A DNA stretch of 64,000 bases from Candidatus Levybacteria bacterium RIFCSPHIGHO2_01_FULL_37_17 (GTDB lineage: Bacteria; Patescibacteriota; Microgenomatia; Levybacterales; UBA12049), in contig MFNL01000001.1 of NCBI GenBank assembly GCA_001782035.1, positions 84,078-148,077 on the forward strand, in the 5' to 3' direction. This document shows, in pieces, positions 3,004 through 48,593 of the stretch. Every line of letters starts with the position of its first letter. Positions within the stretch are counted from its first letter, which is position 1. A program made the translations under genes and the position numbers. Below the pieces are notes generated by a model. It was not told where the DNA came from. It ran no database searches and saw only the letters and a program-made list of their open reading frames with translations.

Positions 3004-3425
3004 TGGCAGACGTATTTGTTTATACAGATGGTGGAGCAAGAGGAAACCCGGGACCTGCTGCAATAGGAGTATACATTGAAAACGGAAGTGGTCAGCCTCT
3101 GTTTCTATCCGGGAAAAAAATTGGGGAAACCACAAATAACATTGCAGAATACACCGCTATTCTTGAGGCATATAACTGGCTCATTGTAAACAAAAACCTA
3201 CTCGATGCTGACGCAAAAATCCATTTTTATATGGATTCTCTTCTTGCATATTCACATATAAGTAGACTTTATAAAATAAAAAATGAAAACTTAAGACAAC
3301 TTGTGTTAGAAATTTGGGAGAAAGAAAAAAACTTGGGTATTCCGGTATTTTATAACCACGTGAGACGTGAAGGAAATAAAAAGGCGGATTTGTTGGTAAA
3401 TCAAGCATTAGATAATTTAATCTGA
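3003..3425 (+). CDS. rnhA: ribonuclease HI
   Basis: N-terminus VYTDGGARGNPGPAAIGV with conserved RNase H catalytic residues; 140 aa. Confidence 0.8.
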   Translation: MADVFVYTDGGARGNPGPAAIGVYIENGSGQPLFLSGKKIGETTNNIAEYTAILEAYNWLIVNKNLLDADAKIHFYMDSLLAYSHISRLYKIKNENLRQLVLEIWEKEKNLGIPVFYNHVRREGNKKADLLVNQALDNLI

Positions 3426-6110
3426 ATGAACTCACCTGCTCTTGTTACAAAAGAATTTAAAAGTGAATTTCCAGTGCTTGTCGTTGATAAAATAGGCATC
3501 CTCGGGGCTGCGCTAGCAGAAAAAATAAAGGATGAGACGCTAGTTATTTTGGTAAGCGCCAAAAAACAAGAAGACCCAAATATTATTCATATACCATATG
3601 AAAGAATTACTCCAAGCATTCCCGATAACACATATTCACACATTTTTCTAATTGACGAAGACGGAGTCTTATCAAAAAGTATGATTACGCCTTTCGTAAA
3701 AAAAGCAGAACACGACGGCTCTGAATTAGTTCTAGTTTTAAGACGAGATATGCTCCAAGATGACTTTGCCGATAGTTTCATTTCTTCCTACGATAAGGCA
3801 AAGATTGTTATAACAGGAGATATTTTTGCTAGCGATTATATTTTTGATTCATCAACAGACATAAATCGTTTTATAAAACATGCAAAAGAAAATAAAAAGA
3901 TAGAAATTGCAGGCGAAGGTTTAAGGCAAACATTCCCCGTTTTTGTCGAAGACGCTGTATGGGGAATACTCCAAGCCGGCTTTATTGAAAAAGACGATAG
4001 AGCTTTTAAAATTTATCCAAGCGGTTATACGCTTCTTTCCATCTCCCGAATTTTACAAAAAATTGATCCGGACCTAAAAATAAACTTTGTAGAAGACAAA
4101 TCGTCACTCCCGAAAGGACAAAATGAGCACCAAGGAAAAATGCTTTTAGATAAAAACTACGACTTGGAAGCAAGGATAAAAAAAATCAAATTTGAAAAGG
4201 CTAAATTTGAAGAAGTCGAGCGCAGAAAAGAGAGCAAACCCTCCATTGAGCTTATTAGATTTAGTGGTCTATCTCGGTTTATTGCAGTAAGTCTTCTAAC
4301 ACTTTTTCTTGTTTTAATCATGCCGATTTTTTTTACTCTTATTTCTTTTTTTGCGGGAGCTCTTCTTTTGCAAGGGGCTAAAATTCAAGTCGAAAAGGGG
4401 CAATTTGAATCATCAAAAAATTACACACAAAGCTCGTACTATGCATTCATATTTTCCCATAGCTCTTTTCCAATTTTCTTAAAAGAGGCAAGCTTTGTAG
4501 GATTGGAAGGAAAAGCGTTAGAGCTTTCAACCAAAATAGATCAAGGAAAAGAAGCATCGTTTGCAATACTAAGTTTTTTTAAAAGCGTAGATAAAATTAA
4601 AAGAATTTTTGATGGCAGCGCTTCTGTTTCGGAAAAAGAATTCAGTGAAGTAGCAGATGATATAAAGCTTTCTTTGGTTTTTTACCAAAAACAGAAAAAT
4701 AATGGAGTCATTCCTGAATCGATAAGTAAAAAATTCGAACCACTTCTGACATTTACCTCTGCAACAATTGAAAGCTGGCCTGAAATTCTGGGATTTAAAG
4801 GGGAAAGAAAGTATTTAATACTGTTGCAAAACAATATGGAGCTAAGAGCTACAGGCGGATTCATAGGCTCTTTTGCTATTACCAGAATTAAAAATGGCAA
4901 ACTTACAAATTTTAAAATTTATGATGTATATGATGCAGACGGACAGCTGAAAGGGCATATTGAGCCTCCATTTGCAATTCGAAGATACCTTAGCTCTCCG
5001 AACTGGTATTTAAGAGATAGTAACTTCGATATCGACTTTTCCCAAAGCGCACAGGCTTCTGCAGTTTTTCTACAAACAGAGCTTAAAGAAACAGTGGATG
5101 GAGTCCTTGCAGTTGACCTCTCATTCGTACGTAGCTTGCTTGAGACTATCGGAGACGTTAAGGTTTTGGATTATAACGAGACAGTCAATTCGGATAACCT
5201 CTTCCAACTAACTCAGGCAAAAGTGGAAGAGAATTTTTTTCCGGGTTCCAAACAAAAAAAAGATTTTCTAAGAAGTTTATATGTTTCAATTCAAACCAAG
5301 CTATCAAGTGATAAAACTACCCCCTATTTAAATGTTCTTCAAAGCGCTATAGCATCGGTTTCTGAAAAGCATATTTTATTTGCGTTTAATAAGGTAAACG
5401 TATCATCGCTTTTTTCAGTAAACGGTTGGGGAGGAACGCTTTTTGACGACAGGAAAAAATCGGATGCAACCATTAATGACTTTGTTGGAATTAATGAATC
5501 TAATTTTGGAGCAAATAAAGTAAATTATTATTTATCAAGAAGTCAGAACTTAAGTACAACAATTGCGGAAAATGGGGAAGTCACAAATGTATTAAAATTA
5601 AGTTATAAAAACAACGCGCCCAAGAGCTTAAACACTAAAGGCTTATATAAAAATTATTTAAGACTTATACTTCCTTTTGCAAGCCAGATTTCAAAAGTAG
5701 AAATAGATGGGATTGAGCAAAGCATTATTCCAGCGGTAACGCAGCCTAGTGTTTATGAGGCAACAAATTTTAAACCCCCTCAGGGACTTGAAATTGAAGT
5801 GACTGAAAATTCGGCAAAGTCTGTTTTCGGAATGTTATTAAACATAGAGCCAGAAGCATTAAAAACCATAACGATAACTTATAAGTTGGCAAGTAAACTT
5901 AACTTGAACCAGGCTAGTTTTAATTATAGTTTAAAAGCCTACAAACAGCCGGGAATTGATAATATTCCTTTTGGTTTCTCACTTAATTTACCAAGTTTTT
6001 TAACAGTTGTTGACTATCCGAAAGAAGCAGGTATTAAATCTAATGGAGCAAGCTTTTCGTCAAGCTTAAGGAAGGATTCAGACTTTATTTTTAATCTTTC
6101 CAAGAAATAG
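3426..6110 (+). CDS. large DUF4012-family protein with an N-terminal Rossmann-like region and one TM segment
   Basis: An 894-aa protein carrying the RATGGFIGSFA motif characteristic of DUF4012, plus a TM helix near residue 290. Confidence 0.5.
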   Translation: MNSPALVTKEFKSEFPVLVVDKIGILGAALAEKIKDETLVILVSAKKQEDPNIIHIPYERITPSIPDNTYSHIFLIDEDGVLSKSMITPFVKKAEHDGSELVLVLRRDMLQDDFADSFISSYDKAKIVITGDIFASDYIFDSSTDINRFIKHAKENKKIEIAGEGLRQTFPVFVEDAVWGILQAGFIEKDDRAFKIYPSGYTLLSISRILQKIDPDLKINFVEDKSSLPKGQNEHQGKMLLDKNYDLEARIKKIKFEKAKFEEVERRKESKPSIELIRFSGLSRFIAVSLLTLFLVLIMPIFFTLISFFAGALLLQGAKIQVEKGQFESSKNYTQSSYYAFIFSHSSFPIFLKEASFVGLEGKALELSTKIDQGKEASFAILSFFKSVDKIKRIFDGSASVSEKEFSEVADDIKLSLVFYQKQKNNGVIPESISKKFEPLLTFTSATIESWPEILGFKGERKYLILLQNNMELRATGGFIGSFAITRIKNGKLTNFKIYDVYDADGQLKGHIEPPFAIRRYLSSPNWYLRDSNFDIDFSQSAQASAVFLQTELKETVDGVLAVDLSFVRSLLETIGDVKVLDYNETVNSDNLFQLTQAKVEENFFPGSKQKKDFLRSLYVSIQTKLSSDKTTPYLNVLQSAIASVSEKHILFAFNKVNVSSLFSVNGWGGTLFDDRKKSDATINDFVGINESNFGANKVNYYLSRSQNLSTTIAENGEVTNVLKLSYKNNAPKSLNTKGLYKNYLRLILPFASQISKVEIDGIEQSIIPAVTQPSVYEATNFKPPQGLEIEVTENSAKSVFGMLLNIEPEALKTITITYKLASKLNLNQASFNYSLKAYKQPGIDNIPFGFSLNLPSFLTVVDYPKEAGIKSNGASFSSSLRKDSDFIFNLSKK

Positions 6111-26436: not shown

Positions 26437-27336
26437 TTAATTTTTATCGATGACGTTTTTTGGTTTACCTGAGAAAAAAGCTTCTATATTTTGAAGAGCG
26501 ATTTCCCTGCTATTAGCCGAAGCTTGCTTGGTAGAAAATGCTATATGCGGAGTTACAAGTATTTTAGGATTGCTGAGTACTTTCTTATAGAACTCATTTT
26601 GAGTGTCTCCTGGAATTTCCGGATCTGTGTCAATTGCCGCTCCTTTTACTACCCCTTTATCAATAGCTTTAATCAAGCCGTCTAAATCATAAGTGTGCCT
26701 TCTAACAAAAGAGACAAAATAAACGCCCTTTTTAAGTGAATTAAAAAAATTTCCATCAAGCAGATTTTTACTTGATGAGCTGGTATTTAGACAATTTATA
26801 ATTAACTCGGCATCTAATGACTTTTCTTTTAAGTTTTCTCCTCTTCTAAAAAAATCTACTTTCATTCCAAATACCTTGAGCACATCTCCTAGCTTGGTTC
26901 CGATACTTCCAGCTCCCACTATTAAAGCTTTCTTGCCATTTAGGCTTTCCTTTAGCTCGAAATCAAATTCATCTTTGGTTCTTAATACTTGAGGAAACTT
27001 TCTGAAAAGTGCGATAGTCATAAAAACAACCCATTCAATAATTGAATCTCTATTGCTGCCTTGTGTGTTGGCGACTAAAACTCCATTTTTCCGGAGTTTT
27101 TCAGAATCAAATAGACCAAGCTCGATGTATGGATATGTGACAAAAACGTTTTTAAGCTTTGACAAGTTTTCTAGAAGAAAAGAACCATCACTTGCAACGA
27201 CATCTGCACCTTTTGCGAATTTGATAAATTTTTCGGAGGAAGAAGGGCTATCATAAGATTTAACATCACCGAGCTTTTTCAAGCGGGCTTTTTGTTCATT
27301 CGAAAAATTTACACCCAGCACAACTATCTTTTTCAT
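26437..27336 (-). CDS. D-isomer-specific 2-hydroxyacid dehydrogenase family protein
   Basis: NAD-binding GAGSIGTKLG with a catalytic His/Glu/Arg region; 299 aa. Confidence 0.75.
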   Translation of the reverse strand: MKKIVVLGVNFSNEQKARLKKLGDVKSYDSPSSSEKFIKFAKGADVVASDGSFLLENLSKLKNVFVTYPYIELGLFDSEKLRKNGVLVANTQGSNRDSIIEWVVFMTIALFRKFPQVLRTKDEFDFELKESLNGKKALIVGAGSIGTKLGDVLKVFGMKVDFFRRGENLKEKSLDAELIINCLNTSSSSKNLLDGNFFNSLKKGVYFVSFVRRHTYDLDGLIKAIDKGVVKGAAIDTDPEIPGDTQNEFYKKVLSNPKILVTPHIAFSTKQASANSREIALQNIEAFFSGKPKNVIDKN

Positions 27337-29415: not shown

Positions 29416-30162
29416 TTATTCTACAAGGATTGAGCCAATCATAGTATCGGCGTGGGCTGAGCAATGATAAGGATAAATTCCTGCAGTATCAAAAGTCAAC
29501 GAGTATGAGTCTCCTTTTCCAAGCGCTTTTGAATTCTGCTCTAAATAATAAGTGTGCGCAGGATGTGAATCAGTATTTACATAGTGTTCAATACTTTCGT
29601 CATTCACCCATGTAACTTTTGTACCCTTGCTTATTTTAATATCTTTAGGATCAAACATAATATTGCTTAATTTTATAGTCACTTCTTTCTGTCCTGTCAT
29701 GTCTTCAAAGTTTGATTGCAGACTTCTGTCAATTGCAAATTGGAAATATCCGTCGTGGCAGGACCCATCCGGCCAGCACGCATTGTAATTTACTGTATAT
29801 ATTCCATCAGGTGCGGAAGAATCCATGCTTCTTCTCATAGAAAGCTTATTAGTGTCAATTTCTGTTTCACCAACTCCATAGTCTTTTCCGTTACTCTCTA
29901 TCTTAATTTCAGATGGAGCAGCCAGATCAAAATTAAAATCTATAACTACGTTAACCGGAACACCGGACAACGTTGAGCCGTGTGCTGGAGTATTGCTTTC
30001 ATAGTGGGCGCTTTTTTTTGGGTCAGTAAATGAGGAAGAAATTTGTGAACTTTGATTATCCAAGTTTGTTAAAGAGGGGGAAGTGGATTTGTTCAAGAGA
30101 AAAAATCCTGCAACTAAAACAACTATTACAGTTATTGTTCCTATAACAATATATTTACTCAT
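29416..30162 (-). CDS. secreted or membrane-anchored cupredoxin-domain protein
   Basis: N-terminal TM/signal, then C-terminal YHCSAHADTMIGSILVE with type-1 copper ligands (H, C, H, M). Confidence 0.6.
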   Translation of the reverse strand: MSKYIVIGTITVIVVLVAGFFLLNKSTSPSLTNLDNQSSQISSSFTDPKKSAHYESNTPAHGSTLSGVPVNVVIDFNFDLAAPSEIKIESNGKDYGVGETEIDTNKLSMRRSMDSSAPDGIYTVNYNACWPDGSCHDGYFQFAIDRSLQSNFEDMTGQKEVTIKLSNIMFDPKDIKISKGTKVTWVNDESIEHYVNTDSHPAHTYYLEQNSKALGKGDSYSLTFDTAGIYPYHCSAHADTMIGSILVE

Positions 30163-37180: not shown

Positions 37181-37393
37181 CTATTTAGTTAAAACAGCCG
37201 AGTAGCCAATCCTTTTTATTATCTGTATTATTTCATCTTCCGAAATTTTCTCTGGATCAAATTTAATATCTGTAGTTGATTTTGCATAGCTGGTTCTTGA
37301 TTCTTGTACCCCATTATCTTCTAGCTCTCCATCTATATCCATTGCGCAACTGGAGCAGTGCATTCCTTGTAGCTTTAGTTTCAGATTTTTCAT
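37181..37393 (-). CDS. copZ: heavy-metal-associated (HMA) copper chaperone
   Basis: GMHCSSCAMDIDGELE, a ferredoxin-like betaalphabetabetaalphabeta metal-binding motif (MxCxxC). Confidence 0.8.
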   Translation of the reverse strand: MKNLKLKLQGMHCSSCAMDIDGELEDNGVQESRTSYAKSTTDIKFDPEKISEDEIIQIIKRIGYSAVLTK

Positions 37394-38418
37394 ATAACCC
37401 TAAATACTCCCTGATACATCCCCATAGAACAGGTGAATAAATAATTACCTTTTTTAAGTTTCGGTAGATTTACTTTCTCTTCTCCGGTGGGCTGCAGGTT
37501 AACGCCTATATTAAGAGCTGGGATTCGAAATGCAATTGAACAGGAGTATGTATTATTTGTTATTAATGAAAGTTCTGTTGGTACACCTTCGCGTAGAGTT
37601 ATAGAATCAGGTTTATATCCAAAAGACTCAACGTTTATAGAAATTTTTTGTACCCCATTTTTAATAGGAGGATAAGAATTTAACATATTTTCAGGGAAAG
37701 AAAAAGGATTAAGAATTGTTAACGCCGATTTTACAGAAATCACCGGTGCGCCCACTCCCACAAGACCCCCGTATATTGAGGAGACCCCTAAAAATATTAA
37801 AATAATTGCTGCTATTTTTAAGAAGTTAAATCTCATTGTTTCTCCTAGTTTGGCGGTTATTACACCTACTCCAAAAAACATGGGAAAAGTTCCCAAAACA
37901 AATGTAGCCATTATTGCCGCTCCTCTTAATCCATTGGAGCTACTTATCGCTAAGGTTTCCATGGCAAGAGTTGTACCACATGGAATTAAAATGGTTAAAA
38001 TTCCCAGTAGGCCCGGAGCAAACAAATCAGCACTCTTAGATTTACTCCTAACGAATTTAGTTATGAACCGTGGTGGTTGAATAACTGCATATCTAAAAAT
38101 TGGATGAATATCTAAAAGATTAAGTGCAATTACAATCATATACATTCCTGCAATAAGCTGCATTGACGATTGTAGGTTTTGAGTAAGGCTTATTACAGAT
38201 CCTAAGCTTCCAAGAATAAATCCTAAAACTGTATAGGCAATAAGCTTTGTCGTTAAAAAAGTCAATGTAGGAAATATTGGATTTGGCGCCTTTTTACCAC
38301 TATCAATATCTTCTTTTTCCCTGGCTGTAATAACAGATGCTAAAAGACCTCCTTGCACAGCTAGACAAGTTAGCCCTCCAACTGTTAAACCGGTTACAAA
38401 AATTACTAAAAGATCCAT
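37390..38418 (-). CDS. polytopic permease (TauE/DsbD_2-like) fused to a C-terminal cupredoxin-like domain
   Basis: N-terminus GLTVGGLTCLAVQGG with ~8 TM helices. The C-terminal ~100 aa are a beta-sandwich carrying Cys/His/Met (YSCSIAF...FTCSMGMYQG). Confidence 0.55.
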   Translation of the reverse strand: MDLLVIFVTGLTVGGLTCLAVQGGLLASVITAREKEDIDSGKKAPNPIFPTLTFLTTKLIAYTVLGFILGSLGSVISLTQNLQSSMQLIAGMYMIVIALNLLDIHPIFRYAVIQPPRFITKFVRSKSKSADLFAPGLLGILTILIPCGTTLAMETLAISSSNGLRGAAIMATFVLGTFPMFFGVGVITAKLGETMRFNFLKIAAIILIFLGVSSIYGGLVGVGAPVISVKSALTILNPFSFPENMLNSYPPIKNGVQKISINVESFGYKPDSITLREGVPTELSLITNNTYSCSIAFRIPALNIGVNLQPTGEEKVNLPKLKKGNYLFTCSMGMYQGVFRVI

Positions 38419-38469
38419 AATACTATTATATAGCTTGCAGACAATGTCTGCCTAATTCTATTGATTTAC

Positions 38470-40530
38470 TCACAATTTCTCTCTTTTCAAAAGAAGCGCA
38501 TTAGCCACAACTATTAATGAAGAAGCGGTCATAAGAAGAGCTGCCCACTCCGGCCTTAGTAGAATTCCTAGCTTATAAAATGCACCTGCTGCAGCAGGTA
38601 TTGTAATAATATTATACCCAGCTGCCCAGAAAAGATTTTGAACCATTTTTGAATTTGTTTTTTGAGAAAGTCTGATTGCTTTCACAACATCTCTAGGGTC
38701 ATTTCTCATGAGAATTATTTCTGCGGACTCTATAGCTACGCCCGTACCTGCACCGATAGCTAGTCCAATGTGAGCTTGCGTTAAAGAAGCTGCATCATTT
38801 ACCCCGTCACCAACCATTGCTACGATATTCCCTTTTTTTTGTAGCTGCTTGATCTTATTGACTTTATCTTTTGGCAAGACATCTGCAAAATAGATATCTA
38901 TGCCTAGTTTCTTCGCGACCAGTTTTGCAACATCTTCATGATCACCTGTTAGCATCGCTGTTTTTATGCCCATCTTTTTAAATGATTCTATTGCTTCTGC
39001 AGATTCTGGCCTTATAATATCTGCAAGTCCAATAGCGCCAATTAACTTTTTATCGATTGCTACAAAAATATAAGTAGATCCCTCAGTTTTCTTGAAAATT
39101 ATTTTTTTATTTCCAATTTTATATTCATCTATGAGAATTTGATTTCCTATCAAAATTTCTTTTCCTGAGAATTTTGCCAGTGCACCTTTGCCGGGAATTG
39201 ATCTAAATTCCTTCACCGCTTCAAGCTTAATTTTTTTGTGTTTTGCGTAATCGATAATTCCCAAAGCAATAGGATGCTGGGAGAAACGTTCGACAGAAGC
39301 AGCCAATTTTAGAATTTCTTCTTTTGAGACTTTGGCAAATGGGATTATGTCTGTGATACCAAATTTACCTTCGGTTAGTGTACCCGTCTTGTCTAAAACT
39401 ATATAGTTAAGCTTTCTTGAAATTTCTAAGGCTTTCATGTCTTTAATTAAAATTCCGTGCTTTGCAGCAAGCGCGGTTGTAATAGTTGTAACAGTAGGAA
39501 TAGCAAGTCCCAAGGCGTGAGGACAGGCTATTACGATAACCGATATGGCTAAAGTTCCTGCAAAAATAAGCCCCTGCGAAGTTGCTAGAGACCAAAATAA
39601 AAAAGTCGATATACCAACAGAAAGAGCTGCGAAAGTCAAAAAGCCTGCTGCCTTATCTGCAATTTTTTGAACCTCTGGTTTTGAATCCTGGGCCTGTCTA
39701 ATGAGCTCCATCATCTGTGAGATTGCAGTCTCATCACCAGTTTTTGTTACCTTAATGGTAAGCGTCCCATCGCTATTTATTGTTCCTCCTATAACACTTG
39801 ATGCCTCACTTTTGTTAACTGGCACAGACTCTCCCGTAATCATCGATTCATTGACTGCGGATACACCTTCTATAACTTCTCCATCAATTGGTATTTTTTC
39901 TCCCGGACGGATTAGGATAAGATCTCCTTTTTTAAGCTCATCAGTTTGAATATCTCTAAGACTCTCCCCATCAATTAGATGCGCTTGTGGCGGAATAAGC
40001 CTAGTAAGCTCTTTTAGAGCACCCGTAGCTCCTCTTACCGCTCTCATTTCTATCCAATGTCCGAATAGAAAAGCCAAAGCCAAGGTCGAAATTTCCCAAT
40101 ATAAACTTTCGCCTGGAAATAGGAACGTGGCGGCAACCGAAAATAAATAACCAGACAATAAAGCTAAAGATACAAGCGTCATCATTCCGTATTTTTTTGC
40201 TCTTATTTCGGATAGACCCATTTGGAACAAGGGGAGTCCTCCCCAAAAAACGATCACAGACGAAAGAACAAAAATTACTATTTCTTGGTAGGGGACACTC
40301 AACGAAAACCTTAACCACTCCTGAATCTTTTCCGAAAGAATTAAAACAAAAAGAGTAAGCGGAAGACTTAGGAAAAAGCGTTTTTTAAAGCTTTTTTCCA
40401 TATCTTTGTGATTAATATCTTCTCGCCCACGTTCTATCGGGACGAGATCCATCCCACACTTAGGACATTTTGAGGACCTTTTGCTTATTATTTCGGGATC
40501 CATCGGACACGTATAAAGACTTTTATGCAT
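38470..40530 (-). CDS. copA: copper-translocating P1B-type ATPase (CPH motif) with an N-terminal CPxxP...CPxCGM metal-binding ribbon
   Basis: DKTGTLT, the CPH transmembrane metal site, the GDGVNDA hinge, and an N-terminal CPMDPE...CPKCGM. Confidence 0.9.
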   Translation of the reverse strand: MHKSLYTCPMDPEIISKRSSKCPKCGMDLVPIERGREDINHKDMEKSFKKRFFLSLPLTLFVLILSEKIQEWLRFSLSVPYQEIVIFVLSSVIVFWGGLPLFQMGLSEIRAKKYGMMTLVSLALLSGYLFSVAATFLFPGESLYWEISTLALAFLFGHWIEMRAVRGATGALKELTRLIPPQAHLIDGESLRDIQTDELKKGDLILIRPGEKIPIDGEVIEGVSAVNESMITGESVPVNKSEASSVIGGTINSDGTLTIKVTKTGDETAISQMMELIRQAQDSKPEVQKIADKAAGFLTFAALSVGISTFLFWSLATSQGLIFAGTLAISVIVIACPHALGLAIPTVTTITTALAAKHGILIKDMKALEISRKLNYIVLDKTGTLTEGKFGITDIIPFAKVSKEEILKLAASVERFSQHPIALGIIDYAKHKKIKLEAVKEFRSIPGKGALAKFSGKEILIGNQILIDEYKIGNKKIIFKKTEGSTYIFVAIDKKLIGAIGLADIIRPESAEAIESFKKMGIKTAMLTGDHEDVAKLVAKKLGIDIYFADVLPKDKVNKIKQLQKKGNIVAMVGDGVNDAASLTQAHIGLAIGAGTGVAIESAEIILMRNDPRDVVKAIRLSQKTNSKMVQNLFWAAGYNIITIPAAAGAFYKLGILLRPEWAALLMTASSLIVVANALLLKREKL

Positions 40531-40675
40531 GATTATTTATATACTTATCAGGATTTTCGTCAAAGCTTTTTTTACAATAAGAGGAGCAAAATACATAAAT
40601 TTTTTCATTATAGACGCTTTGAAATTTGAGATTATTAGAATCAACATCCATTCCACAAACAGGATCTTTTACCAT
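40523..40675 (-). CDS. unannotated YHS-domain small protein (50 aa)
   Basis: Reverse-strand ORF MVKDPVCGMDVD...YVFCSSYCKKSFDENPDKY... carries DPVCGM and a second Cys pair. A strong SD (AGGAGGTGAT) is upstream. Its last codons overlap the copA ATG. Confidence 0.7.
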   Translation of the reverse strand: MVKDPVCGMDVDSNNLKFQSVYNEKIYVFCSSYCKKSFDENPDKYINNHA

Positions 40676-40691
40676 ATAAAATCACCTCCTA

Positions 40692-40964
40692 TTAATTATT
40701 TTTCTTAAATACTTGCATTATTTCCCTGATTGCCTCGTCTTTCTTACCTTTTGAGATCTGGTTTGCAACGCACTTTTTTAAATGGTTTTCTAGAAGAAGA
40801 TTTCCAGTTTCCTTAAGTCCTGATTCTATTGCCTGTATTTGATGCATTATATCTATGCAATAAGCATCTTCATCCATCATTTTGATAACCTTATCAAGAT
40901 GTCCGCGCCCAATCTTTAAGCGATGTGTTACTCTTTCGTGTGTATCACGTGGTCTATATGCCAT
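40692..40964 (-). CDS. csoR: CsoR/RcnR family metal-sensing transcriptional repressor
   Basis: 90 aa. Helical DUF156 pattern with the conserved Cys (YCIDIMHQ) and a His/Cys C-terminal region. Confidence 0.8.
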   Translation of the reverse strand: MAYRPRDTHERVTHRLKIGRGHLDKVIKMMDEDAYCIDIMHQIQAIESGLKETGNLLLENHLKKCVANQISKGKKDEAIREIMQVFKKNN

Positions 40965-44000: not shown

Positions 44001-44537
44001 TTAGTTTTTATATTCCTCTTTAATATCTGTTCCAAATTTCTCTAGCAACTTTTTAATTTTCGGAGCTATTATAAAAGAACAATAAGGATAGTTTTGGTTA
44101 TTATCATAGTAATTTTGATGATATTCCTCGGCCTTGTAGAATTTTTCGAATGGTTTTATTTCTGTAACAATGTTGTCCTTAAGCTTTTCTTGGTGTGTTT
44201 TCCTCGATTCTTCAGCAAGCCTTTGTTGTTGAGTGTTGTGATAAAAAATTGCAGAACGGTATTGAGTTCCAATATCATTTCCCTGCATATTTAGCGTTGT
44301 AGGATCGTGTGTTGCCCAGAAAACTTCTAGAAGCTTATCAAAAGAAATAATCTTAGGCTCGAAAGTAACCTGAACGGCTTCAGCATGCCCTGTATTTCCT
44401 TCAGACACCGCAGAATAATTTGGATTATCCATTTCCCCTCCGCTGTAGCCAGACTCCACAGTCTTTACCCCCCTTAGCCTTTTAAAGATTGCCTCTGTGC
44501 ACCAGAAGCATCCGCCTGCAAATGTTGCCTTTTCCAT
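44001..44537 (-). CDS. msrA: peptide methionine sulfoxide reductase MsrA
   Basis: Active-site GGCFWC, 178 aa. Confidence 0.9.
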   Translation of the reverse strand: MEKATFAGGCFWCTEAIFKRLRGVKTVESGYSGGEMDNPNYSAVSEGNTGHAEAVQVTFEPKIISFDKLLEVFWATHDPTTLNMQGNDIGTQYRSAIFYHNTQQQRLAEESRKTHQEKLKDNIVTEIKPFEKFYKAEEYHQNYYDNNQNYPYCSFIIAPKIKKLLEKFGTDIKEEYKN

Positions 44538-47277: not shown

Positions 47278-47317
47278 CTATTTTGACATTATCCCGTTTT
47301 AATATTATCATTTTGAT

Positions 47318-47800
47318 ATGAATATCCTTATTTATCAAATTTCAAAACTTTTACCCGAAAACAAGGCTCATGCTCACTGCGATATCCCTTGTGGGATTTA
47401 TGATCCTCACATGGCACAAATGGCAGCTCATACAGTTTTGCGAATGACTCAGCTTCTTACCCAAATTAAAGGAGAATCACTTGAGTCGCAGCACACTATT
47501 GCAAGAGTCACAGATGTAAAAGAAGAGCATGGAGAGTTAGTAGAAGATGAACTTGGGACATTAGAAAATGATTATTTTAAAGAAGAACATTTCGAAAATT
47601 TTCCTAAATTAAAAGAATTAATAAGCAAAGCCGTAAAATTATCAATAACAACAAGACAAAATATAGACGAAAATTCAGCTAAAGATCTGGTAGAGTCGGT
47701 TTTGCAAATCTCTGAAATATTTTTCAAAACAAAAGGTGCGACCCCAGTAAGAGTAAAGTCTGTTTATCCCACCGAGGGCGAAATTGTAACCCACAAATAA
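47318..47800 (+). CDS. sodN: nickel-containing superoxide dismutase precursor
   Basis: Pro-peptide ends ...KAHA, followed by the Ni-hook HCDIPCGIYDP. A ~140-aa four-helix body follows. Confidence 0.8.
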   Translation: MNILIYQISKLLPENKAHAHCDIPCGIYDPHMAQMAAHTVLRMTQLLTQIKGESLESQHTIARVTDVKEEHGELVEDELGTLENDYFKEEHFENFPKLKELISKAVKLSITTRQNIDENSAKDLVESVLQISEIFFKTKGATPVRVKSVYPTEGEIVTHK

Positions 47801-48087
47801 TGTTTTTGCTTTCTAAATTTAAAATAAGAGGCCATTCAATGGAGCCCCTATTTAAAGATGGGGAAAAAGCATTAGCAAGTTTTATCCCGTACTTGATTTC
47901 TAAACCAAAAGTTAAGGATGTCGTAATTTTTAAAGTGAAAGGAAAGTATTTTGTAAAAAGAGTTAGAGATATAAAGAACGGAAAATATTTCGTTGAGGGA
48001 GATAATAAAAAAGATAGTTTAGACAGTAAAAATCTCGGAAAAATATCTAATCAGGAAATCGTCGCAAAGGTAATTTACAAGCTTTAA
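47800..48087 (+). CDS. sodX: NiSOD maturation endopeptidase (S26 signal-peptidase-like)
   Basis: 95 aa with the GHSMEP Ser motif and a catalytic Lys region. Immediately downstream of sodN and start-stop coupled to it. Confidence 0.65.
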   Translation: MFLLSKFKIRGHSMEPLFKDGEKALASFIPYLISKPKVKDVVIFKVKGKYFVKRVRDIKNGKYFVEGDNKKDSLDSKNLGKISNQEIVAKVIYKL

Positions 48088-48593
48088 TGGAATTTATTTT
48101 GATTATTGGGGTCATTTTTATTTTACTGGTACTTCTTTCTTTTGTATGGCCACCTGATAGTCCTTGGGCACCATGGTGGAGAACCTCCAAAGAGGTTGCA
48201 AGAAAAATTTGTAAATTATCCAAAGTTGGCAGTAGTGATATAATTTATGACTTAGGATCTGGGGATGGTACTGCTTTAATAGTTGCAGCAAAAGAATTTG
48301 GTGCAACAGGAGTAGGTATTGAAATTGATCCGGGACGAGCTTTTATATCAAAGATGCTAGTTGCTAAAAATAAGGTTTCTAGAAAAGTTAGAATAGAAAG
48401 GAAAAACTTTTTCGATGTTAATCTTTCAGATGCAAGCGTAATTTTTTTATATTTGGTTCCAAAAACATTAGAAAAGCTAATACCAAAGTTTCGGAAAGAA
48501 TTAAAAAAAGGAACGAAAATAGTAAGCTATAGATATAAGATGGATTTAGAGTTAATTGGTAACTCTGAAGATTTATACCTTTATACTATTTAA
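48087..48593 (+). CDS. class I SAM-dependent methyltransferase
   Basis: DLGSGDGTALIVAAKEFGATGVGIEID motif I / post-I. Confidence 0.7.
   Translation: MEFILIIGVIFILLVLLSFVWPPDSPWAPWWRTSKEVARKICKLSKVGSSDIIYDLGSGDGTALIVAAKEFGATGVGIEIDPGRAFISKMLVAKNKVSRKVRIERKNFFDVNLSDASVIFLYLVPKTLEKLIPKFRKELKKGTKIVSYRYKMDLELIGNSEDLYLYTI

Follow-up and report, generated by a model that had tools for sequence, protein, structure and literature searches.

A sodN-sodX gene pair for nickel superoxide dismutase in a Candidatus Levybacteria genome

Nickel superoxide dismutase (NiSOD) is activated by a maturation protease through cleavage of its preprotein (PMC8346466). In Prochlorococcus and marine Synechococcus the gene order is sodN then sodX, the small streamlined genome relies on NiSOD as its SOD (PMC8346466, PMC4284471), and the cyanobacterial gene sodT, encoding a UreH-family nickel permease, co-localises with the pair (PMC4284471). 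The NiSODs of Streptomyces coelicolor and Streptomyces seoulensis (1T6U, 1Q0D) have a cleavable leader before His1 and the hook H-C-D-x-P-C-G-x-Y-D-P, fold as a four-helix bundle and are encoded next to the gene for a small anchor-less S26 peptidase, SodX. With the exception of sodT, the locus described here resembles both systems in these features. Cleavage of pre-SodN before His1 by SodX was reportedly demonstrated for Prochlorococcus by Eitinger in 2004.

The DNA analysed, called the window, is a stretch of 64 kb from a metagenome-assembled genome of Candidatus Levybacteria (CPR/Patescibacteria), a tiny groundwater bacterium whose lineage is commonly regarded as one of anaerobic, metabolically minimal symbionts. 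The sodN-sodX pair in it was confirmed as genuine but ordinary, its profile and structure matches lying far above what chance would give. The original prediction, a SodN precursor with a dedicated, coupled S26-type protease in a reduced AT-rich genome, was upheld by HMM matches, alignment to solved NiSOD, a Ser/Lys dyad, predicted folds and synteny in 22/22 loci. Judged by its sequence features, predicted folds and conserved synteny, the locus is very probably a functional NiSOD operon of this genome, in which cleavage, nickel loading and catalysis would proceed as in the systems characterised in Streptomyces and Prochlorococcus. The reading of the pair as NiSOD and its protease is correct but already known, and adds little alone because it was available from public annotation and from a NiSOD phylogeny released as a preprint in 2021; the NCBI record for the exact SodN protein (OGH02952.1) is already named 'superoxide dismutase, Ni'.

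NiSOD had also been taken as characteristic of actinomycetes, cyanobacteria and marine lineages. This view is out of date, since hundreds of close homologues occur in Levybacteria, Microgenomates and Parcubacteria, and the preprint, 'Inter-domain Horizontal Gene Transfer of Nickel-binding Superoxide Dismutase' (10.1101/2021.01.12.426412), describes horizontally acquired NiSOD clades in Patescibacteria and DPANN, with a Chloroflexota origin and onward transfer to archaea. Close homologues of the window SodN (43-76% identity) were found in Levybacteria, Microgenomates, Parcubacteria, Woykebacteria and DPANN archaea, a spread that matches the reported Patescibacteria clusters and archaeal transfer, and the window protein belongs to the published Patescibacteria/Chloroflexota-clade. 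The horizontal, Chloroflexota origin of the window sodN is taken from that preprint alone, which makes no mention of sodX, maturation or the N-terminus. What is added here beyond the preprint is the linkage to sodX in 22/22 loci, a C-terminal hairpin, second-sphere substitutions and a methyltransferase neighbour. The pair also agrees with published work in which SOD genes were reported as frequent among Patescibacteria and enriched in oxic groundwater.

The sodN gene and the features encoded at its 5' end are located as follows:

47318..47800 (stop codon included), + strand: sodN, NiSOD precursor of 160 aa including the propeptide (Pfam, TIGRFAM, PDB, AF2)
47318..47374, + strand: SodN propeptide, residues 1-19, MNILIYQISKLLPENKAHA, ending in an Ala-x-Ala signal-peptidase-type site (A-H-A)
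47375..47407, + strand: Ni-hook HCDIPCGIYDP, mature residues 1-11 (residues 20-30), with the ligands His1, Cys2 and Cys6, and Asp3, Pro5 and Tyr9

SodN scored 124.1 bits with the Pfam model Sod_Ni (PF09055, cut-off 25) and 136.1 bits with the sodN equivalog TIGR02753 (cut-off 90), and the pro-peptide followed by the Ni-hook that had been predicted in sodN is present. In the alignment to the solved NiSOD 1q0d (E=4.8e-20) His20 aligned to mature residue 1 and HCDIPCGIYDP matched the Streptomyces sequence HCDLPCGVYDP residue for residue. This alignment, proposed by the original prediction as a check, revealed the His1-Cys2-Cys6 pattern; the H, C, D, P, C, G, Y and D of the hook, Tyr9 among them, were invariant in 119 homologues. 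Arg39, Asp61, Tyr62 and Lys64 of Streptomyces NiSOD are likewise kept in the window SodN. The leader is 14-22 aa long in 115/120 homologues, with Ala at -1 in all 119 and Ala or Val at -3 in 117 of the 119 examined for these positions. In the window its A-H-A end directly abuts His20, so that the predicted cleavage would free the alpha-amine of His1. The AF2 model of SodN is a four-helix bundle (pLDDT 91.3), and Foldseek matched it to 1t6u, 1q0d and 1t6i at target-normalised TM of 0.88-0.94, a likeness to Streptomyces NiSOD of TM 0.9. Profiles built from homologues found no second copy of SodN or of the S26 peptidase in the 64-kb window.

By analogy with the characterised enzymes, the 160-aa SodN precursor would be kept from binding metal by its leader of 19 residues, and cleavage would turn His20 into His1 with a free alpha-amine. 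His1 (through its amine and imidazole), Cys2 (through its amide and thiolate) and Cys6 (through its thiolate) would then fold round nickel as the 'Ni-hook', predicted to sit at the end of the four-helix bundle, and the enzyme would cycle between Ni(II) and Ni(III), dismutating superoxide in the cytoplasm.

On the other hand, the window SodN differs from Streptomyces NiSOD in several respects. The identity of the mature proteins is just 38%, the leader is 19 aa long, helix 1 is followed by an insertion of 5 residues, and Ala17/His47 replace Glu17/Arg47. In Streptomyces NiSOD, Glu17 and Arg47 hydrogen-bond His1 (PMC5722923); with Glu17 changed to Ala and Arg47 to His, the His1-Glu17-Arg47 hydrogen-bond triad cannot form as such. 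The loss of Glu17 and Arg47 was counted against the functional-NiSOD reading. A further difference lies at the C-terminus:

47738..47797, + strand: SodN C-terminal extension, residues 141-160, ATPVRVKSVYPTEGEIVTHK, predicted beta-hairpin, absent from Streptomyces NiSOD

The Pfam and TIGRFAM SodN models stop at residues 139/140, before this conserved 20-residue extension, for which AF2 predicted strands at 143-147 and 155-159 (pLDDT 95-97). Within the clade, conservation is 90% or higher at positions P143, R145, Y150, P151, T152, E155 and V157. The hairpin is without counterpart in any solved NiSOD, and no description of a NiSOD C-terminal extension was found in the literature searched. The CPR/DPANN NiSOD subtype, with its beta-hairpin and altered second coordination sphere, is represented by no solved structure.

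The gene that follows sodN has these features:

47800..48087, + strand: sodX, 95-aa S26-family peptidase core without membrane anchor, containing GHSMEP; its start overlaps the sodN stop (TAATG)
47836-47838, + strand: codon of the SodX catalytic Ser13
47956-47958, + strand: codon of the SodX catalytic Lys53

The sodX ATG (47800-47802) and the sodN TAA (47798-47800) have one base in common, which is the layout expected of translational coupling, and sodX translation would begin at this overlapping start. The coupled 95-aa S26-like GHSMEP protease that had been predicted was thus recovered with its ORF, its TAATG overlap and its S26 motifs. The sodN-sodX ORFs contain no frameshift or internal stop, including the sodX-disrupting frameshift that the original prediction had named as evidence against itself. 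SodX scored 62.3 bits with the Pfam model Peptidase_S26 (cut-off 22.9), and its boxes Ser13 (GHSMEP), Lys53 (VKRV) and GDNKKDSLDS aligned to those of the signal peptidase SpsB. Residues G11, H12, S13, M14, P16, K53, R54, G67, N69, D72 and S73 were invariant in 41 homologues. The AF2 model has an all-beta core (pLDDT 86.5) with TMq 0.82-0.85 to SpsB. By analogy, SodX would work as a soluble S26 peptidase, anchor-less and with a Ser13/Lys53 dyad, cleaving SodN behind Ala19 of the Ala-His-Ala site. Nothing relevant on sodX in CPR was found in the literature searched.

SodX shares with the type I signal peptidases (Staphylococcus aureus SpsB, 4WVH; Escherichia coli LepB, 1B12) the Ser SM.P box, the Lys KR box, GDN..S.DS and the beta-core fold. 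It passed the signal peptidase model TIGR02227 sigpep_I_bact (67.8 bits, cut-off 47) and missed the SodX equivalog TIGR02754 (38 bits, cut-off 63.25), and SpsB signal peptidases are its best solved relatives, as would be expected if the 95-aa ORF were a truncated general, LepB-like type I signal peptidase lying beside sodN by chance and not dedicated to it. Such a chance neighbour is very improbable given the other evidence. No hydrophobic N-terminal segment was found in the 95-aa protein, which lacks the transmembrane anchor and the large beta-sheet domain II of type I signal peptidases, is roughly half the size of SpsB and consists of the catalytic core only, covering TIGR02754 model positions 2-88 of 90. 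In 22/22 GTDB species loci, from bacteria and DPANN archaea, the gene immediately following sodN is a sodX homologue, despite differing other flanks. Moreover, syntenic orthologues pass TIGR02754 (64.1-82.9 bits in Woykebacteria, DPANN and type B and type C Levybacteria); L010, a closer type A relative, scored 54.1 bits. The SodN leader also ends in Ala-x-Ala, the motif cut by S26 enzymes and preferred by type I signal peptidases. Since the window protein is below the TIGR02754 cut-off, its assignment as SodX rests on synteny and on the orthologues that pass, and the description of the pair as the typical SodX arrangement agrees with the equivalent ORF after sodN in all 22 related loci. The ORF is therefore read as a dedicated SodX, presumed to be cytoplasmic and to have a single substrate, in contrast to type I signal peptidases.

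The start codon assigned to sodX decides whether the catalytic serine is included. An 82-aa call from ATG 47839 (MEPLFKDG...) omits Ser13; most automatic calls in ENA, JGI and Logan use this ATG, and the 82-aa form was found on 21 contigs of these three sources, whereas NCBI uses the 95-aa form and leaves it as 'hypothetical'. If sodX truly started at 47839 the product would be a Ser-less inactive remnant, and SodN would be cut by another peptidase or remain unprocessed. Besides the recurrence of the short call, the Shine-Dalgarno-like sequence AAGAGG 7 nt upstream of 47839 and the lack of a Shine-Dalgarno ahead of 47800 speak for such a start. However, AGAGG stems from the codons of Arg10-Gly11, of which Arg10 is variable in relatives, and the 12 residues before Ser13 are kept at the protein level (MLLxKFKIxGHSMEP), with G11-H12-S13 invariant in the 41 homologues. 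The Ser is preceded at a distance of 11-13 codons by a start codon, at or beside the sodN stop, in 22/22 loci. The 82-aa start was rejected on the protein-level conservation of the first 12 residues, and an inactive SodX is very unlikely. Surveys scoring sodX presence/absence may undercount the maturation protease, because of the 'hypothetical' label at NCBI and the short calls of other pipelines that lack the catalytic serine.

MsrA, a copper system and a stress regulon had been named as neighbours of the pair. The first two were found, but no 'stress regulon' as such was identified:

44001-44537, - strand: MsrA
about 37318-40964, - strand: copper cluster CsoR/YHS/CopA/DsbD_2-cupredoxin/HMA

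Among the Pfam-annotated genes of the 64-kb window and of two related 20-kb loci, no nickel transporter (NiCoT/UreH/SodT, HupE/UreJ, CbiMNQO, Nik), no Fur/Nur or Ni-responsive regulator, and no second SOD or peroxidase was found. Unlike the cyanobacterial sodN-sodX-sodT cluster, the pair has no transporter gene adjacent to it, in the window, or in related loci with listed neighbours and the window, in contrast to Streptomyces, showed no Nur regulator. The absence from the window of a nickel importer, a Ni-responsive regulator and a peroxide-removing enzyme was counted against the functional-NiSOD reading. From its gene content the Levybacteria cell appears to carry a complete nickel-dependent superoxide defence, so that it would need trace nickel, and a nickel-uptake requirement is a reasonable supposition.

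Where sodT is found in cyanobacteria, the third gene here encodes a single-pass membrane methyltransferase:

48087..48593, + strand: methyltransferase gene, 168 aa, with an N-terminal transmembrane helix, the invariant motif WPPDSPWAPWWRT and an aKMT/DOT1-like SAM domain

Residues 26-151 of this protein matched the aKMT structures 5fa8 (E=1e-25) and 5jwj (E=1.6e-24), the DLGSGDG SAM-binding motif is present, and the Pfam model DOT1 gave 28 bits. The score with the NCBIfam aKMT model NF041081 was 103.8 bits, under the cut-off of 200, and the protein is therefore described as aKMT-like and not filed as an aKMT equivalog. It has the seven-beta-strand SAM methyltransferase domain of Sulfolobus islandicus aKMT (5FA8/5JWJ). 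FAM173B is built of a transmembrane helix, a 'pre-MTase' segment and the MTase, in this order (PMC9006661), and the third gene product resembles mitochondrial FAM173A/B (ANT-KMT, ATPSc-KMT) in having an N-terminal transmembrane helix, such a segment and an MTase. In contrast to aKMT and FAM173 it is bacterial (CPR).

The methyltransferase gene is co-directional with sodN-sodX, with the sodX stop and its own ATG overlapping as TAATG. The junctions of the three genes showed no terminator-like site, and the methyltransferase gene is probably in the same transcript. Its start lies -4 to +3 nt from the sodX stop in 22/38 distinct loci. The gene follows sodX in 15/15 Levybacteria-type GTDB loci, and in a search with the methyltransferase sodX was upstream in 26/28 informative metagenome loci. 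SodN lineages of types A, B and C all fill the same slot ahead of it. Taken together, these observations could point to sodN-sodX-methyltransferase as the functional unit, in which a membrane-anchored lysine methyltransferase modifies NiSOD or a partner in an oxidative-stress function; we regard this as unlikely. FemAB and UvrD, which lie downstream on the opposite strand and served as a control, are conserved equally well (23/25 loci), so the adjacency may merely reflect a conserved backbone of Levybacteria chromosomes. The two parts also occur separately: one locus (L051) has methyltransferase-FemAB-UvrD without sodNX, and sodN-sodX stands without the methyltransferase in a Woykebacteria locus and in six DPANN loci. 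In another locus (L097) an inserted radical SAM gene separates sodX from the methyltransferase gene, and no lysine conserved solely in methyltransferase-linked SodN was found. The FemAB/UvrD control and L051 led us to reject the methyltransferase as a proven NiSOD partner, and the sodN-sodX NiSOD operon is the preferred reading.

It is equally doubtful that the membrane-anchored methyltransferase is a third operon part methylating NiSOD or a membrane partner, with sodN-sodX cassettes of type A (C-terminal hairpin), type B (no hairpin) and type C (actinobacterial-like) having refilled the slot ahead of it on three or more occasions. If true, the locus would be a fixed site at which superoxide-defence cassettes dock and are exchanged. 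No described precedent for a methyltransferase in an operon with sodN-sodX was found in the literature searched, and the conserved FAM173-like methyltransferase in the sodN-sodX operon is a hypothesis that is cheap to test.

Upstream of sodN a candidate promoter was located:

47283..47311, + strand: sigma-70-like promoter TTGACA-17 nt-TATCAT, 11/12 consensus positions (consensus match only)

Its -10 hexamer ends 6 nt ahead of the sodN ATG, and a Shine-Dalgarno is lacking. A leaderless or nearly leaderless sodN mRNA is predicted from this layout. The pattern TTGAC[AT]-17/18-TAnnnT ending 6-12 nt ahead of the ATG occurs in 21/31 distinct methyltransferase-linked Levybacteria-type upstream regions. 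The sodN mRNA thus appears leaderless from sequence, and the gene would be transcribed from the immediately upstream promoter. The GC content is 0.354 for sodN and 0.299 for sodX, compared with 0.359 for the window, and both GC and GC3 of sodN, sodX and the methyltransferase gene resemble those of neighbouring genes. A recent horizontal transfer visible in composition was rejected on these values; sodN-sodX are not compositionally foreign, suggesting an old rather than a recent acquisition.

The open reading frames proposed as sodN, encoding a nickel superoxide dismutase (NiSOD), and sodX, encoding its maturation protease, were both found at the predicted positions, neither of them interrupted, and are followed by a third gene:

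47283-47311, forward strand: near-consensus promoter TTGACA-17-TATCAT, ending 6 nt upstream of the sodN ATG
47318-47800, forward strand: sodN, 160 aa, consisting of MNILIYQISKLLPENKAHA, then HCDIPCGIYDP, then the remainder of the protein
47738-47797, forward strand: C-terminal extension of SodN (residues 141-160), a conserved stretch of 20 residues, ..PVRVKSVYPTEGEIVxYK
47800-48087, forward strand: sodX, 95 aa, with GHSMEP close to the N-terminus
48087-48593, forward strand: methyltransferase gene, 168 aa, starting on the sodX stop (TAATG)

SodN scored 124.1 bits against Pfam Sod_Ni (cut-off 25) and 136.1 bits against the NCBIfam equivalog TIGR02753 (cut-off 90), and NiSOD was its sole match in a search of solved structures (1q0d, E=4.8e-20). 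The predicted Ni-ligand pattern was borne out by alignment: His20 pairs with residue 1 of mature Streptomyces NiSOD, and His1, Cys2, Asp3, Pro5, Cys6, Tyr9, Arg39, Asp61, Tyr62 and Lys64 of the S. coelicolor enzyme are kept. Across 119 homologues the residues of the hook do not vary, nor does the Ala at -1, and 117 have Ala or Val at position -3, indicating that the leader, 14-22 residues long in 115/120 sequences, ends in a typical Ala-x-Ala site. The AlphaFold2 model of SodN was a four-helix bundle (pLDDT 91.3) that could be superposed on crystal structures of NiSOD (TM 0.88-0.94).

The A of the sodX ATG is the last base of the sodN TAA stop (TAATG), a layout expected for the translational coupling that had been proposed. 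SodX scored 62.3 bits against Pfam Peptidase_S26 and aligned with S. aureus SpsB over the SM.P, KR and GDN..S.DS boxes; G11, H12, S13, M14, P16, K53, R54, G67, N69, D72 and S73 were invariant among 41 homologues. Its structure model (pLDDT 86.5) showed the S26 beta-core that it has in common with the signal peptidases SpsB and SipA (TMq 0.82-0.85), and no membrane anchor is present in the 95 residues. Against the SodX equivalog TIGR02754 the protein reached 38 bits (cut-off 63.25), spanning model positions 2-88 of 90, and the orthologues that Woykebacteria, DPANN archaea and other Levybacteria have in the same place after sodN scored 64-83 bits. By this coverage and these scores, the SodX of the window belongs to one unbroken family, of which it is a divergent member. 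The reading as NiSOD with a maturation protease was thus supported by HMM scores, alignment, folds and conserved gene coupling.

The start codon of sodX differs between gene calls. NCBI lists 95 aa; the ENA, JGI and Logan calls start at ATG 47839, giving 82 aa and losing the catalytic Ser13. The shorter start is almost certainly wrong, because a start codon 11-13 codons ahead of the Ser, at or adjoining the sodN stop, was found in 22/22 related loci and the N-terminus MLLxKFKIxGHSMEP is conserved at the protein level. The Shine-Dalgarno-like AAGAGG ahead of 47839 is the product of the Arg10-Gly11 codons. The short call recurs in relatives (e.g. the related locus L098), and NCBI names both SodX (OGH02953.1) and the downstream methyltransferase "hypothetical protein"; SodN (OGH02952.1) is named "superoxide dismutase, Ni". 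As a result, these genes may be overlooked or wrongly scored when the presence of sodX is surveyed.

sodN lacks a preceding Shine-Dalgarno sequence, and this together with the promoter lying 6 nt from the ATG makes a leaderless sodN mRNA likely. The same promoter layout was found in 21/31 distinct methyltransferase-linked upstream regions; the loci L024 (Woykebacteria) and L026 (Nanoarchaeia) have GGAGG ahead of the start instead. The precursor architecture, ligand set, protease catalytic residues, both predicted folds and conserved gene coupling are seen here; the steps that follow can be drawn from what holds in Streptomyces and Prochlorococcus. SodX would cut pre-SodN behind Ala19. Nickel would then be coordinated by the freed amine of His1, the amide of Cys2 and the two thiolates, with the imidazole of His1 in the axial position, and SodN would cycle between Ni(II) and Ni(III) in the cytoplasm.

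The mature part of SodN is 38% identical to Streptomyces NiSOD and differs from it by a 5-residue insertion following helix 1. In Streptomyces, Glu17 and Arg47 hydrogen-bond to the His1 imidazole (PMC5722923), whereas the clade of the window SodN has Ala (or Gly) and His throughout at these positions. The C-terminal extension lies past the ends of both family models (Pfam and TIGRFAM) and is predicted with high confidence to fold as a beta-hairpin. It occurs in no solved NiSOD structure, no description of it was found in the searchable literature, and Woykebacteria and DPANN homologues carry it too.

In the product of the third gene, a transmembrane helix at the N-terminus is combined with an invariant WPPDSPWAPWWRT segment and an aKMT/DOT1-like SAM methyltransferase domain; it matched the Sulfolobus lysine methyltransferase aKMT (5fa8, E=1e-25) and scored 103.8 bits against the NCBIfam aKMT model, below its cut-off of 200. 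The order of parts is that of mitochondrial FAM173A/B, namely transmembrane helix, pre-MTase segment and MTase (PMC9006661). The gene follows sodX in 15/15 Levybacteria-type GTDB loci and is missing from the Woykebacteria and DPANN loci. Conversely, among 28 metagenome loci with upstream sequence, found as close orthologues by methyltransferase search, sodX precedes it in 26; in the two exceptions, that position holds ClpB-like and RNase H-like genes (L051) or the upstream sequence ends after just 346 nt (L032). As a control, the downstream genes FemAB and UvrD, which lie on the opposite strand, were conserved in 23/25 loci, and the block methyltransferase-FemAB-UvrD-TIM-LytR-DUF2298 recurs in relatives. 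Since these neighbours are equally syntenic, the adjacency of the methyltransferase to sodN-sodX may come from the stability of the chromosomal backbone and not from a common function, leaving a functional link to NiSOD as no more than a possibility. In one Levybacteria relative (L097, 10773-11864) a 363-aa radical SAM gene lies between sodX and the methyltransferase and overlaps both, indicating that the operon tolerates insertions; this gene may have been recruited to it.

Three SodN lineages occupy one position ahead of the methyltransferase-FemAB-UvrD block:

Type A, as in the window (47318-47800): with the C-terminal hairpin
Type B, in the related loci L038, L040, L046, L048 and L061 (each about 3140-3660): without the extension, 42-45% identical to the window protein
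Type C, in the related locus L049 (about 3140-3660): 62% identical to S. coelicolor NiSOD and, unlike the window SodN, retaining Glu17/Arg47

This suggests that the sodN-sodX cassette has been replaced in situ, repeatedly. We consider it improbable that sodN, sodX and the gene for the FAM173-like methyltransferase form a three-part NiSOD module at a locus of swapped SOD cassettes.

MsrA and a copper system, named as neighbours in the original prediction, were both located upstream of sodN, where a LUD-domain gene, a 118-aa hypothetical, PfkB, DUF378 and a holin-like gene are also found:

44001-44537, reverse strand: MsrA
about 37318-40964, reverse strand, upstream of MsrA: copper cluster of a CsoR-type repressor, a YHS protein, a CopA P-type ATPase, a DsbD_2-cupredoxin fusion and an HMA protein
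29416-30162, reverse strand: separate CopC/cupredoxin gene, about 8 kb from the cluster

This copper set is unusually rich for a small genome. Among all Pfam-annotated genes of the window no Ni transporter, Fur/Nur or NikR regulator, other SOD or peroxidase was seen, and the window holds no second copy of SodN or S26. In cyanobacteria the Ni permease gene sodT occurs together with sodN-sodX (PMC4284471), whereas no counterpart was found in the window or in two relatives with listed neighbours. GC and GC3 of sodN and sodX are similar to those of neighbouring genes, so composition gives no sign of a recent transfer. Relative to ENA scaffold_79 (L001, L007), the coordinate offset at the 2-Hacid_dh gene (26437-27336) and that at sodN differ by 387 nt, so the two assemblies differ by an indel somewhere within 26437-47318.

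The same three proteins occur on NCBI contigs of Candidatus Levybacteria bacterium (RIFCSPHIGHO2_01_FULL...; Rifle aquifer) and on ENA, JGI and Logan assemblies from the Rifle site. The named ones among the best 120 SodN homologues (60-80% identity) are Levybacteria, Microgenomates, Parcubacteria or "Patescibacteria group". A scan of GTDB species genomes gave 22 loci, comprising Levybacteria/Microgenomates-type bacteria, one Woykebacteria and six DPANN archaea (Aenigmatarchaeota, Nanoarchaeia and Micrarchaeota). One preprint, which does not discuss sodX, places the NiSOD clusters of Patescibacteria inside a clade rich in Chloroflexota and reports further transfer to archaea (10.1101/2021.01.12.426412); NiSOD has also been noted in a Saccharibacterium (10.1101/211649), and 66-83% of MAGs of groundwater Patescibacteria are reported to carry SOD genes (10.1101/2021.07.28.454184). 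The occurrence of NiSOD in a CPR genome is therefore known, systems of this kind having been both annotated and published before. Levybacteria-type sodN-sodX-methyltransferase-FemAB-UvrD loci are also carried by four TPA-assembled MAGs (L010, L013, L021 and L022) whose title, "uncultured Gammaproteobacteria bacterium", is probably a wrong label.
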